64,000 nt of DNA from Escherichia coli (GTDB taxonomy: Bacteria > Pseudomonadota > Gammaproteobacteria > Enterobacterales > Enterobacteriaceae), in NCBI RefSeq assembly GCF_003334765.1, contig NZ_QOWT01000021.1. The stretch is one strand, 5' to 3'. The notes beneath the pieces were generated by a model, which was not told the DNA's origin, did not search any database, and was given only the letters and a program-made list of their open reading frames with translations. Shown one piece after another: positions 15,118 through 23,670 of this stretch; position 1 is the first letter of the stretch, and every line of letters starts with the position of its first letter. A program made the translations under genes and the position numbers.

Positions 15118-16674
15118 TCACAAATGTTGCTCGGCCCAGCGTAAGAAATCTTCTTTCGGTAATGCCTTGCTGTAGAGCCAGCCCTGACCGTAGTGCACGC
15201 CATGCTGGCGTAACCACTCTTCTTGTTTACTGGTTTCGATTCCCTCCGCTACCATTTTCAGTTTCAGTGTTTTTGCCATTTCGATGATATGCGGCGTGAC
15301 ATTTTTATATTCCAGCGCATCAACGAAAGATTTATCGATCTTCAGAATGTCGACATCCAGATCCTGTAAATAACTTAAACTTGAATACCCCGTACCAAAA
15401 TCATCAAGATAAATTTCATGGCCCGCCTCCCGGTAGCGAGAAATTATCGGGGCGCTGGTTTTCGGATCGGCAAACTCGCGTTCAGTGAGTTCAAGCGCGA
15501 TCTGTCTGGGATTAACCTGATAGTGATTGATCATGTCACGCAGCAATTGCGGGATTTTTTCCGAGGTGAGCACGGGGGATTCAAGATTGATCGAAATATG
15601 CTGCTGTGGATGCTGACGCAGCCAGTCGCCCATATCTTCAAAGACGCTTCTTATAATCAGTAGCGTCAATGGCTCAGAAAGGCCCGTTTGCTGTGCCAGC
15701 GGAATAAAACTATCTGGTGACAACCAACTACCGTCTGTCTGCGGCCAGCGCGCCAGTGCCTCAGCACCGACAATTTTGCCATTGGCTAAGGAGACAATCG
15801 GCTGATAGTGCACGCAAATATCACGATTTTCGATAGCATCCTGCAGCCGATGATGCGGTGACTGAATACGGCGCAAAATACGCAGCACAAACATCGCTGC
15901 CAGCAGGCCAATCACCAACCCGAGCGGTAACCAAATAAAGACTTGCCGATGCCAGCCTTTCTGCAACATTTTCGTTGAAGCCCATGTGATGATCGAAATA
16001 TTCATCTCCGGTAAGGGCAGGATATCGTAAATGATTCCATTATTTTCGATATGCTCACCGGGTGTTTTTTGTAGCCTGGTAATAATTCCCTGAGCAATTT
16101 CATCGCTGCTGGTTATGACAACGTTATGGGCATTGCCAATAATGGCGGCATCAATTTGCCATGAGCTATAGGGAATGACATCAATAAAGGAAGCGGGGTC
16201 GATCATGACGACATAATGTGCCGTTCCCATGGCGACCATGTAACGGATAATGCCTAAATCGTTATGCGATGTTAACCAGACACGATAACCATCTTTCGAA
16301 ATTTTACCTGGCTCGGGGAAGGTATCGGGCGGACTTTCATGCTCCAGAGACGAACACTGGGGAACGTTGTTATCGATATAAGCCACTTCCTGAATATAGC
16401 GATAACTGTAAGATACCCGACGCATTTCCATGAGATGGGCTTCGCTACAGGCAGCGCCTTGCCATCTTTCCAGCTCCTGCAGCGCATCTTTCCCTTGTGT
16501 CGCCACCTTATTGGCTCGAATAGCGACGCGGGAGGAATAGGTATCCAGCTCTTCAATAAACGATGTTTCTACCTGCTGATGGGCCAGCCAGATGCTTAAG
16601 CCGACAGGCAGCAATACTGAAAGAATCAGTACTCCCGAAATAAGGCCGACCAGATGTCGTGTTCTCACCAGCAT
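15118..16674 (-). CDS. pdeB: c-di-GMP phosphodiesterase PdeB (YlaB), CSS-EAL domain protein
   Basis: 518 aa ORF with N-terminal TM/periplasmic domain and C-terminal EAL domain (..EALARW.. DDFGTGYSSLSYL..); an alternative GTG start 6 nt downstream (16668) is possible. Confidence 0.88.
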   Translation of the reverse strand: MLVRTRHLVGLISGVLILSVLLPVGLSIWLAHQQVETSFIEELDTYSSRVAIRANKVATQGKDALQELERWQGAACSEAHLMEMRRVSYSYRYIQEVAYIDNNVPQCSSLEHESPPDTFPEPGKISKDGYRVWLTSHNDLGIIRYMVAMGTAHYVVMIDPASFIDVIPYSSWQIDAAIIGNAHNVVITSSDEIAQGIITRLQKTPGEHIENNGIIYDILPLPEMNISIITWASTKMLQKGWHRQVFIWLPLGLVIGLLAAMFVLRILRRIQSPHHRLQDAIENRDICVHYQPIVSLANGKIVGAEALARWPQTDGSWLSPDSFIPLAQQTGLSEPLTLLIIRSVFEDMGDWLRQHPQQHISINLESPVLTSEKIPQLLRDMINHYQVNPRQIALELTEREFADPKTSAPIISRYREAGHEIYLDDFGTGYSSLSYLQDLDVDILKIDKSFVDALEYKNVTPHIIEMAKTLKLKMVAEGIETSKQEEWLRQHGVHYGQGWLYSKALPKEDFLRWAEQHL

Positions 16675-16831
16675 ATCCTTATTAACACAGTGTAGGGAAA
16701 GTATATCTGATTGTGGAAAAAGGCTGGCTGGAGATAAGGAGGTAGAGCTGGTATTTCATGAAGTGATGGGTGGAAACGATCATTGTCATTTGACCAGGCG
16801 CAGAGCTTTACGCCTGGTATGTAACCCTAAC

Positions 16832-17302
16832 TTAAGATGTTGATTCGGCGCGAGCGAGGGTAAAAATATCGTAAAAAGACAGTTCACCTTTACGGACGAT
16901 CATTTTTTGCAGTTGTTCCTTATGAACATCCGCGACACGCGGAGAGTTCAAGATGGCTTCAACCAGCGCGGCAGGTACAAAGCGCGTGTTGTACCATTCG
17001 CCGTTATAGCAAACGCGGAAATCCAGCACGTCGATATCTTCATAGCGGTAGCGTGGGTAGACATCGAAAAAGAAGAAACCATTAAGCAGGATAAATAATA
17101 CAACCAGTAGCCAGACAGAGCCTGACAGCGTTTCGGACTGCAACATCACCGCCAGGGTGGCAAAAAAAGCAACGTACATACCGATAAACAGCCCCGGATG
17201 TTTACGGATAAAACTGATACTAAAGCGGGGTTTGTTGTCGCGTTTTTCGCGGGTATTCAGAGACTCAATCGTTTCGGTCAGCAGGCGTTGTATTTCGGTC
17301 AT
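16832..17302 (-). CDS. ylaC: inner membrane protein YlaC
   Basis: ATG at 17302 ([22 protein letters not shown]..) 156 aa with two hydrophobic helices; ORF-track start 17341 is upstream. Confidence 0.85.
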
Positions 17303-17417
17303 CGTTTGCCTTCGTGGTATCTGCAACTTTCCAGGGAACACCCTATTTTAACGTGGGAATAGTAGAGGGGAAGTAACAGATCTACCACAATTTTGCATAA
17401 CAGTTGCGAAAAACCGA

Positions 17418-17969
17418 TTACAATTTTTTAATTATTCTGGCTGGATTACCGCCCACGACAACGTTGTCCGGGACATCTTTTGTGACAACTGCACCTGAGG
17501 CTACCACGACGTTATCACCAATGGTCACACCAGGGTTAATGACCGCGCGTCCGCCAATCCAGACGTTATTACCGATGGTGACGGGTTTCCCCAGTTCAGC
17601 ACCGCTATTACGTGCTACAGGGTCGATGGGATGTGTTGCCGTGTAGATATGAACGCCTGGTGCCAACATACAGTTATCACCGATGCGAATAGGGCAGACA
17701 TCAAGCATCACGCAATCGAAGTTGGCGAAAAAATTATTACCGAGAAAAATGTTATAGCCATAGTCACAGCGAAACGTTGGCTCAATATAAGCCTCTGTCA
17801 CCTGACCGAATAGATCAGCGAGAATTTGCTGGCGTAATGTGTGCTCTTCCGCCAGGGAATGATTGTATCGGTGAATAAGCTGACGAGCGCGCAGGCGATC
17901 GCGAGATAACGTCTCATCTGCCGAGCGATACAACTCACCAGCAATCATCTTTTCTTTTTCTGTGCTCAT
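17418..17969 (-). CDS. maa: maltose O-acetyltransferase (hexapeptide-repeat acyltransferase)
   Basis: 183 aa [24 protein letters not shown].. with left-handed beta-helix hexapeptide repeats. Confidence 0.93.
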
Positions 17970-18140
17970 TACTGACCTCCGGTTGCTGAAAATGCGGCAA
18001 CACAGTAAGACGAAAAGTCAGTGAAGAGAACGTTCCCATTACATCTGTGTGATAAAGATCACATAGGGTATGTCTTCATGGCGAAAAAGTATAAAATTCT
18101 TAATAAACAGCCGGTTATAGCTCCGAAAGCGAATTATTTA

Positions 18141-18359
18141 TTAGCGAATAAATTTCCATACTGAGGAAGGGATCTTGTCGTACAGTTTATTCATGGTCAA
18201 TTCGGCGAGGCGGTGATCTGCGGCTGAGTAAAATACCGCCAGTTCATTATCTGATAATTCGTATTTATTTTTCTCGATAACACGCTCCAGCGTGTCAATT
18301 GTCTGGCAACGACGTAAACGCATTAAATAATCGGTTTTCGTTAAAGGTTTTTCGGACAT
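18141..18359 (-). CDS. hha: haemolysin expression-modulating protein Hha (H-NS co-regulator)
   Basis: ATG at 18359 ([72 protein letters not shown]) 72 aa; ORF-track entry is an in-frame upstream extension into tomB. Confidence 0.95.
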
Positions 18360-18384
18360 ACTTCTACCTATGGTTGTAATAATT

Positions 18385-18759
18385 CTAACAAGATAAACTC
18401 GCAGGATTCTCTTTCGTCGCATTGACAAAACAACGGAATAGTCGATTACCTGACTTCCGCCATTTCTGAAGATCCTGCATATTAATACCATAACTACTGA
18501 ACAACATAAAGGTGTCATCCAGATATTCGTCGATCTGCTCAATGAGCTTATTGTCTTCATTATACTTAATTTTGTAATTAAGTGCGAAGGTCGCAATATG
18601 CTCAATCAGTTCATTCAACTGGAGGTTGATCGCCGAGGTTGGGTCGTTTACCCAGCCATGATTGCTTTCTTCAAGGTTTGCAAGGCAGTCATGATACAGG
18701 GTTTCACAGAGAAACTTAAGCTGTGCGATATCATGTCTTTTGGGTGAGTATTCATCCAT
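18385..18759 (-). CDS. tomB: Hha toxicity modulator TomB (YbaJ)
   Basis: 124 aa [34 protein letters not shown].. 25 nt upstream of hha on the same strand. Confidence 0.93.
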
Positions 18760-19263
18760 AACGCGTCCCCTTCTTAGCGGTTGAACTAACGGACACCTTT
18801 CGGGATGGAAAAAACTTACTGACCTGGACTTGCCCTCTCGTTTGTTAGCTTAACTATAAGCCACTCTTTGCAGGTTTTCATCGCATTATTACGAAAAATT
18901 ACAATTAGGAAGGAAGCGGGACAGGACTCACTTTTTCATACTAGCACTAACCCGCAGCAGGTAAAAGCAGTTTGCTCGAACTATTCATAACATTTCAGGA
19001 TTATCGCCAGATGAAATTGGTGACACTAATACCAGGATTGCTCTGAATATGACGTAATAACCGAGGAATGAATAAAGAATTACCGCAAATAATTAAGAAT
19101 AGCCTCTAAATGATTATGGATTATTAAATCTATTAGCGCTACTTAATATAAATTAACTAACAATCAGTATTTTTTATGAATTTTATCCGTGGTTAATACT
19201 GGTTTTCGTATGAGATCCTGAGTTGGTGGTTCAATTACTCCTTAATGTTCGTAGGTTATGCAT

Positions 19264-19285
19264 AAAAAAGGCCGCTTACGCGGCC
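19264..19285 (-). terminator. rho-independent terminator of acrAB
   Basis: Minus-strand GGCCGCGTAAGCGGCC hairpin (19270..19285) followed by U6 (A-run 19264..19269 on plus strand), 20 nt after acrB stop. Confidence 0.7.
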
Positions 19286-19304
19286 TTAGTGATTACACGT
19301 TGTA

Positions 19305-22457
<3,153 letters not shown>

Positions 22458-22476
22458 TTAACGGCTCCTGTTTAAG

Positions 22477-23670
22477 TTAAGACTTGGACTGTTCAGGCTG
22501 AGCACCGCTTGCGGCTTGCTGGTTATTATCAGCGGTAACTTCTTGTGCTTTTACCTGGACACCAGGACGCACTTTCTGCAGCCCACTTATTACTACGCGA
22601 TCGCCTGCTTTCAGACCTTCTGTCACCAGCCACTTATCGCCAATAGCCTGGCTTGCAACGATCGGACGGGTTTCCACTTTGTCATCCGCGCCAACTACCA
22701 GTACGGTGGCATCGCCACGCGGCGTACGGGTTACGCCCTGTTGCGGGACTAAAATAGCGTTTGGATTAAGCCCTTCTTCCAGACGTGCGCGCACGAACAT
22801 ACCCGGCAGCAGAGTGTGATCCGGGTTCGGGAAGATAGCGCGTAGGGTGATAGACCCAGTGGTCTGATCAACGGTAACGTCAGAGAATTCCAGCGTACCG
22901 TCCTGCGGGAACTTAATGCCGTCACTGGTGATCAGTGACACTTTGGCTTTGCCGTTCTCTTGTTTCAGCGTGCCATTCGCCAGTTCCTGTTTCAGGCGCA
23001 GGAAGTCGTTGCTGGACTGGGTCACATCAACGTAGATCGGATCAAGTTGCTGCACGGTTGCCAGCGCAGTCGCCTGACCGTTCTGTACCAATGCGCCTTC
23101 CGTCACGTTCGACTTACCAATGCGACCGCTAATCGGAGAGGTGACTTTGGTGTAAGCCAGATTGATCCGCGCAGTTTCAACGGCAGCTTTCGCCGCAGTT
23201 ACCGCAGCATTCGCCTGTTGCGCATCAGCCAGAGCCTGATCGTACTCTTGCTTACTGATGTACTGAGTACCGAGCAGTTTCTGATAACGATTCACCGTCA
23301 ATTGCGCGATATTGGCTGCAGCCTGGGCTTTCGCCAGATCACCTTTCGCACTGTCGTATGTCGCCTGATAGGTCGCAGGATCAATCTGATAGAGAGAGAC
23401 ACCTGCTTCGATGTCGCTACCTTCTTTGAAATTACGCTTCAGGATAATCCCGCTAACTTGAGGACGAACTTCTGCGATCCGGTAGGCACTGGTGCGACCC
23501 GGAAGCTCGGTTGTGATCTGCAGAGGTTCAGTTTTGACTGTTACTACGCCAACGGCGGGCATCTGCTGGCCACCTTGTTGGGCCTGTTTGTCGTCACATC
23601 CTGTTAGGGCTAAGCTGCCTGAGAGCATCAGAACGACCGCCAGAGGCGTAAACCCTCTGTTTTTGTTCAT
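22477..23670 (-). CDS. acrA: RND efflux periplasmic adaptor (membrane fusion lipoprotein) AcrA
   Basis: ATG at 23670 (MNKNRGFTPLAVVLMLSGSLALTGCDDKQ..) 397 aa, lipobox LTGC; 22 nt upstream of acrB. Confidence 0.97.
   Translation of the reverse strand: MNKNRGFTPLAVVLMLSGSLALTGCDDKQAQQGGQQMPAVGVVTVKTEPLQITTELPGRTSAYRIAEVRPQVSGIILKRNFKEGSDIEAGVSLYQIDPATYQATYDSAKGDLAKAQAAANIAQLTVNRYQKLLGTQYISKQEYDQALADAQQANAAVTAAKAAVETARINLAYTKVTSPISGRIGKSNVTEGALVQNGQATALATVQQLDPIYVDVTQSSNDFLRLKQELANGTLKQENGKAKVSLITSDGIKFPQDGTLEFSDVTVDQTTGSITLRAIFPNPDHTLLPGMFVRARLEEGLNPNAILVPQQGVTRTPRGDATVLVVGADDKVETRPIVASQAIGDKWLVTEGLKAGDRVVISGLQKVRPGVQVKAQEVTADNNQQAASGAQPEQSKS

Follow-up and report, generated by a model that had tools for sequence, protein, structure and literature searches.

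The stretch at 18141-18759 of the window (the whole 64,000-nucleotide sequence of Escherichia coli DNA that was analysed) runs exactly from the stop codon of hha back to the start codon of tomB, two genes encoded on the minus strand (Table 1). A script comparison revealed that the region 16800-22500 of the window is base-for-base that of E. coli K-12 MG1655 (100% nucleotide identity), in which the tomB-hha stretch occupies positions 480090-480708 of NC_000913.3, also at 100% identity. The MG1655 annotation names the pair hha (b0460) and tomB (b0461, 'Hha toxicity modulator TomB') and places it between acrB and maa. The stop codon of tomB and the ATG of hha are separated by exactly 25 nt, with the sequence AATTATTACAACCATAGGTAGAAGT. 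The original prediction identified the genes as tomB and hha and described them as two small genes on one strand, 25 nt apart; the exact MG1655 match and the Pfam and NCBIfam scores reported below establish the identity, and the sequence itself gives a tomB of 124 aa, an hha of 72 aa and a gap of that length. The locus is the well-studied chromosomal tomB-hha operon of E. coli K-12, which is known in detail down to its 25-nt spacer.

Table 1. Features of the tomB-hha locus, in window coordinates.
Feature	Coordinates	Strand	Description
Conserved promoter-like block upstream of tomB	about 18850..18906	minus	From promoter scan and 25-sequence alignment
tomB (ybaJ, b0461)	18385..18759	minus	124 aa; ATG 18759, TAG 18385-18387; first operon gene
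Open in-frame stretch 5' of hha ATG	18360..18605	minus	82 codons, TTG 18605; yields 154-aa ORF
tomB-hha spacer	18360..18384	minus	25 nt; holds hha Shine-Dalgarno AGGT, ending 6 nt before ATG
hha (b0460)	18141..18359	minus	72 aa; ATG 18359, TAA 18141-18143; second operon gene

For comparative analyses, a search of genome contigs with Hha yielded 441 relatives, the best 80 of which were taken, one per species and all from Enterobacteriaceae; families beyond the Enterobacteriaceae were sampled through two Morganellaceae records. Among these best 80 of the 441 relatives, the spacer between the two genes is 23-31 nt long in 76 loci, 75 of the 80 have an RGGT Shine-Dalgarno motif 5-7 nt 5' of the hha ATG, and the tomB Shine-Dalgarno motif AAGGGG is likewise conserved. 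Hha has 72 aa and an ATG start in all 80 orthologues. Four Leclercia loci (L037, L055, L064 and L065) encode a TomB of 130 aa with a C-terminal extension, as a result of which the gap to hha has shrunk to only 7-8 nt, and the hha Shine-Dalgarno motif in these loci falls within the tomB coding sequence.

The original prediction also warned that the open reading frame track merges hha into a frame of 154 aa, and this is what the mechanical list contains: its minus-strand entries are an ORF of 124 aa (18385-18759, ATG) and one of 154 aa (18141-18605, TTG), with the hha ATG nested in frame within the latter. A rival reading takes the 154-aa frame, from TTG 18605 to TAA 18141, as what hha really encodes, or as an additional longer form of the protein; its upstream part covers the last 221 nt of tomB in a different frame. 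The 82 codons of the extension are indeed open in K-12, in one Escherichia sp. and in E. albertii, and a run of that length is uncommon by chance given the TomB protein (P about 0.013 by synonymous recoding of tomB, which gave a median of 21 codons). However, the one Escherichia sp. and E. albertii are the only 2 of the 80 orthologous loci in which the extension is open, at 82 codons each; the frame is interrupted in the other 78, including those of other Escherichia lineages, where the open stretch 5' of the hha ATG is 21 codons, and in most other genera that stretch is no longer than 14 codons. Within tomB, the extension frame carries 1-5 stop codons in 73 of the 75 ungapped loci. Over the overlap, the mean nucleotide identity to K-12 is 0.802; translation in the tomB frame gives an amino-acid identity of 0.887, versus 0.535 in the extension frame, and variable columns fall 37/32/70 on the three tomB codon positions, so that the wobble signal belongs to tomB. 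The 82-residue extension matched no NCBIfam family, none of its eight in-frame start codons in K-12, TTG 18605 included, is preceded by a Shine-Dalgarno-like motif, and 72 residues is also the length of the Hha model in NCBIfam and of the Hha chains in the PDB. The 82-codon open run is uncommon yet unremarkable, and it is specific to a lineage.

We consider it vanishingly improbable that the long frame is the true product or a second isoform of hha, and as a conserved gene it is already refuted. On the comparative evidence, the 154-aa frame is an artefact of mechanical stop-to-stop ORF calling and not a gene, and the ORF track is the one thing here that calls for correction. The original prediction had named proof of the extended frame as the one result that would overturn it, and the comparative data reject that frame. 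The practical lesson is that listing ORFs from stop to stop can conceal even a well-known pair of genes; the stop codons of orthologues, together with the frame in which wobble substitutions accumulate, resolve the matter. The same track also over-extended the N-terminus of ylaC (window 16832-17341, minus strand), for which the mechanical ORF has 169 aa with a GTG start and the MG1655 gene has 156 aa (478781-479251, corresponding to window 16832-17302).

Both proteins are full-length members of their families, with scores far beyond chance. Hha matched Pfam HHA (PF05321) at 9.5e-40 over model positions 1-57 of 57 and NCBIfam NF008191 at 169.1 bits (cutoff 90) over all 72 model positions (1-72), the full-length HHA profile match thus lying above the curated cutoff. 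TomB matched Pfam YbaJ (PF10757) at 1.1e-65 over positions 1-117 of 118 and the NCBIfam equivalog NF007948 at 234 bits against a cutoff of 108, again a full-length match above the curated threshold, and its gene directly precedes a same-strand member of the hha family, as is expected of the TomB family. PDB entries 1JW2 and 2MW2 contain chains identical to the 72-residue Hha, and the Hha chain in 4ICG differs from the protein in the window by one residue (E3D); binding of Hha to the N-terminal domain of H-NS is known from the literature and from the solved Hha/H-NS complexes (2MW2 and 4ICG). The Yersinia YmoB structure (2MN2) matched TomB at 2.3e-50.

Cys18 of Hha, the residue whose modification defines the type VII mechanism assigned to this pair, is present in the toxin encoded in the window and in 80/80 orthologues. 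The buried Cys18 of TomB is kept in all 80 orthologues as well, and the other TomB cysteines are retained in most (C25 in 75, C110 in 78 and C124 in 63 of 80). These conserved cysteines agree with the mechanistic residues of the published system. Variable columns among the 80 orthologous loci are distributed over codon positions 57/44/117 in tomB and 23/6/66 in hha, a distribution that shows both genes to be under purifying selection.

The signals upstream of tomB point to an operon separated from its neighbour. A strong intrinsic terminator of acrB at 19287-19268, conserved across genera, sets the tomB-hha operon apart from acrB. The acrB-tomB spacer is 545 nt long, has a GC content of 29-33% compared with about 50-57% in the flanking genes, and is mostly unconserved in an alignment of 25 sequences (E. 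coli and 24 other loci). The only strongly conserved part of this spacer, and its most conserved one, is the block at about 18850-18906, which in the promoter scan includes a promoter-like ATGAAA-17-TATAGT at 18881-18853 and whose minus-strand sequence contains AATTGTAATTTTTCGTAATAAT...ATGAAAACC...GTGGCTTATAGTTAAG. This block probably comprises the tomB-hha promoter together with an upstream regulator-binding or UP-like element; we infer the position of the promoter from its consensus match and its conservation.

A different site agrees best with the sigma-70 consensus in this region (10/12), namely TTCGCA-18-TATAAT at 18588-18559 on the minus strand, which sits inside tomB about 200 nt upstream of hha. 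Its hexamers are partly retained in orthologues (TTCGCA in 52/75 and TAYAAT in 39/75), and hha might on these grounds be transcribed mainly from a promoter of its own, in which case the two genes would be uncoupled and would not form a bicistronic module. However, the number of promoter-like matches equals that expected from shuffling (4 vs 3.9), retention of the hexamers is confounded by the conserved codons F-A and Y-N, and third-position conservation at the hexamers (0.71-0.72) is no higher than that at the 5' end of tomB (0.75). In addition, co-transcription of tomB and hha from a common promoter has been reported (PMC2408971), and an internal promoter would supplement the operon transcript, not replace it. 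We therefore hold uncoupling of the two genes to be distinctly improbable and retain a single operon transcript as the preferred reading. The site at 18559-18588 could be an internal hha promoter, but we did not adopt it since, good as the match is, its conservation is inseparable from codon constraints.

Scans for structured RNA gave nothing further at the locus. Rfam models, searched at E up to 1, detected no RNA family in 16500-20000, and folding z-scores for the tomB-hha junction (-0.21), the putative 5' UTR (-0.82) and the region 3' of hha (+0.47) were none of them beyond those of shuffled sequences. No intrinsic terminator was found 3' of hha on the minus strand. Further along, between the hha stop at 18141 and the maa ATG at 17969, lies a perfect CRP-type palindrome, TGTGATAAAGATCACA, at window positions 18048-18063. 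It is unique within the 64-kb window, where shuffling predicts 0.07 occurrences, and 37 of the 80 orthologous loci have an exact copy of it in the corresponding place past the end of hha. The palindrome probably acts as a CRP site in the maa promoter.

The linkage of the two genes is strict in the loci compared. Among the best 80 of the 441 Hha relatives, tomB lies directly upstream of hha and on the same strand in every one of the 80 Enterobacteriaceae loci, and the pair was also found in the Morganellaceae, in Providencia, with a gap of 72 nt, and in Proteus. The gene order acrB-tomB-hha was observed in 77 of the 80 species, the other three loci having too little upstream sequence to reach acrB. 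Within the species, 5425 of 5426 complete E. coli genomes carry the pair, 5377 of them at an identity of 99% or more.

Natural disruptions of tomB do occur in E. coli. An IS1 element lies within tomB in the natural strains Ec-RL2-1X and SY033, and IS1 truncates the 5' end of tomB in the natural isolate SC516, with hha intact in all three, although the IS1 in such loci may be polar on hha. Further insertions comprise an IS1 in hha of one isolate and an IS5 in the spacer upstream of tomB in a K-12 derivative; the genomes that carry insertion sequences at the locus are those of Ec-RL2-1X (L088), SY033 (L091), SC516 (L092), strain 19213 (L090) and CV601 (L089). The insertions are independent of one another; the AT-rich tomB-hha locus may be a hotspot for insertion, or its inactivation may be selected.

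A very different picture emerged from plasmids. At least 5000 of the 72,556 plasmid records, the majority of them conjugative, encode homologs of Hha that are 54-68% identical to it, compared with 14 of the 72,556 records for TomB, and a search with a divergent query (TomB of Providencia, E up to 0.01) returned the same 14. Several of these records are Mb-sized. The three smaller ones that were opened (NZ_CP137697.1, NZ_CP149222.1 and NZ_CP056156.1) are non-mobilizable, carry the chromosomal acrAB-tomB-hha-maa-ylaC segment and are probably mislabelled or misassembled chromosomal DNA. With 3 of the 14 matching records opened, TomB is on no genuine plasmid among the 72,556 records, and its distribution is chromosomal only.

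At four plasmid hha loci, six-frame ORFs searched against a TomB profile built from distinct orthologues gave no match (best E = 2.3), the neighbouring genes were unrelated, and the Hha proteins keep the RRC cysteine. A possible cryptic TomB-like partner, a 122-aa gene upstream of the hha of a Klebsiella IncR plasmid, was rejected on finding that it encodes a hydrophobic, membrane-type protein without a match to the TomB profile. These plasmid-borne homologs share the HHA fold and family with the chromosomal paralogue Cnu/YdgT (PDB 2JQT), and both are H-NS-binding co-regulators. The plasmid proteins retain the cysteine as in Hha and, at the four loci checked, have no TomB-family neighbour; Cnu/YdgT has Ile at the position of Hha Cys18 and has no TomB-family neighbour either.

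Nothing biologically new is claimed here for the locus, as its toxin-antitoxin reading has been in print since 2008 and a mechanism since 2016. Garcia-Contreras et al. proposed Hha and YbaJ as a toxin-antitoxin pair in 2008 on the grounds that the genes share an operon, lie 25 bp apart, encode small proteins and are autoregulated, and that overproduced Hha is toxic (PMC2408971). In that study, induction of Hha inhibited growth of E. coli and YbaJ/TomB attenuated the toxicity, which was indirect and depended on lysis genes of prophages as well as on the proteases Clp and Lon. Marimon et al. found in 2016 that TomB and YmoB touch Hha transiently and enhance oxidation of its Cys18 to -SOxH, by which Hha is destabilised, and that YmoB can stand in for TomB in E. 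coli, rescuing the growth inhibition caused by Hha (PMC5155140). Current literature lists the two genes under type VII (PMC7641770). In Salmonella, TomB was reported to be labile and Hha stable, with toxicity being conditional, and a tomB deletion mutant grew normally (PMC5133643); the TomB-Hha complex described there is stable, which conflicts with the transient interaction found in 2016 (PMC5155140). A 2025 study of Yersinia found that overexpression of YmoA was non-toxic and that YmoB had no antitoxin action (PMC11825884).

Co-transcription, toxicity, neutralisation and the oxidation chemistry are taken here from that literature and, combined with the anatomy of the locus, suggest the following course of events. 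A promoter in the AT-rich spacer past the acrB terminator, probably in the block near 18853-18906, would drive a single transcript from which TomB, a four-helix bundle of 124 aa, would be translated first. The 72-aa Hha would be translated independently, from its own Shine-Dalgarno motif and the ATG at 18359, 25 nt past the tomB stop. Hha would then bind H-NS and act as a co-silencer of AT-rich, horizontally acquired genes and, when overproduced, would inhibit growth indirectly through prophage lysis genes and proteases, with TomB promoting oxidation of Hha Cys18 as in the published type VII toxin-antitoxin mechanism. No protein would come from the 154-aa frame, whose 82 codons upstream of the hha ATG are free of stops in this lineage only and run across tomB out of frame. 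We hold with high confidence that this account as a whole, namely the chromosomal K-12 tomB-hha operon with one transcript, a 72-aa Hha made from its own ATG, the published type VII mechanism and no product from the 154-aa frame, is the best explanation of the locus.

Comparison with known systems places the pair with precision. It is the same locus as Hha/TomB of E. coli K-12, the founding type VII pair (PMC2408971), with identical gene sizes, order and 25-nt gap; nothing differs here, the 154-aa ORF being an artefact of the listing alone. The YmoB/YmoA operon of Yersinia is an orthologous two-gene operon with the same order, and YmoA (PDB 2K5S) aligns with Hha at 3.7e-34 and has retained the Cys. 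It differs, however, in that in Yersinia itself YmoA overexpression was reported to be non-toxic and deletion of ymoB to have no antitoxin-type phenotype (PMC11825884). With the classical type II systems (such as relBE, mazEF and yefM-yoeB) the pair shares two small genes on the same strand with a short spacer, the neutraliser first and the growth inhibitor second, as well as reported autoregulation (PMC2408971) and a reportedly labile first product (PMC5133643). In contrast to those systems, tomB-hha needs no stable neutralising complex but acts through transient contact and oxidation (PMC5155140), and Hha has H-NS as its partner instead of an enzymatic target. The pair is also core and syntenic rather than accessory or mobile, tomB can be lost with hha intact, and the Hha family spreads on plasmids without TomB.

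The original prediction held that the module resembles a toxin-antitoxin pair, with the modulator first and the regulator or toxin second. Gene order and literature (PMC2408971, PMC5155140, PMC7641770) support that description, as two adjacent small genes do form one operon with the neutraliser upstream, and the word 'resembles' was apt, since the pair lacks several classical toxin-antitoxin hallmarks. A toxin is expected not to persist without its antitoxin, and the two to move together, whereas Hha is on at least 5000 plasmids and TomB on 14 of 72,556. Loss of the antitoxin should not be tolerated, whereas IS1 interrupts tomB in strains with hha intact and tomB has been deleted in Salmonella (PMC5133643). 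Finally, a patchy, strain-variable distribution would be expected, and that observed is near-universal (5425/5426 E. coli genomes, with acrB synteny in 77/80). We have filed tomB-hha as the known Hha/TomB system because the architecture fits, but co-mobility, intolerance of antitoxin loss and patchiness are not seen. The pair has a toxin-antitoxin-like architecture but is no addiction module.

These observations invite a stronger statement: that tomB-hha is no functional toxin-antitoxin system at all but a vertically inherited operon in which TomB is a redox-linked tuner of the Hha level, the toxicity being a side effect of overexpression exerted via H-NS and prophages. Its core-gene behaviour and fixed synteny, the natural tomB disruptions with hha intact, and the spread of Hha homologs alone on at least 5000 plasmids with TomB never on genuine mobile elements are all as this reading would have it, and so are the need of Hha toxicity for prophage genes and proteases (PMC2408971), the lack of a growth phenotype on deletion of tomB or ymoB, and the non-toxicity of YmoA in Yersinia (PMC5133643, PMC11825884). 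Conversely, induction of Hha does inhibit growth of E. coli, with rescue by TomB or YmoB and a defined chemistry (PMC2408971, PMC5155140), and a labile TomB with a stable Hha, as reported in Salmonella, is toxin-antitoxin-like (PMC5133643). The statement departs from the published type VII account mostly by label and not by molecular mechanism. We regard it as quite possible, if somewhat short of probable, and keep the type VII operon as the preferred reading. The contrast between TomB at a fixed chromosomal site and an Hha family that spreads alone on plasmids bears on the ongoing dispute over the toxin-antitoxin label.

Potentially, chromosomal TomB acts in trans on the orphan Hha homologs of plasmids, which keep the oxidisable Cys18, although we consider such an action rather unlikely. 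If it were true, the host could shut off the H-NS co-silencers encoded by plasmids in an oxygen-dependent manner, and the pair would be better seen as a means by which the host controls Hha-family proteins through redox chemistry than as a toxin-antitoxin module complete in itself.

In phages, tomB and hha are essentially absent, a single record carrying both at 100% amino-acid identity to K-12. That record, OR845140.1 (Escherichia phage EC22.5-2, 11,193 bp), is unannotated and appears to be a piece of the host chromosome, not the genome of a phage.
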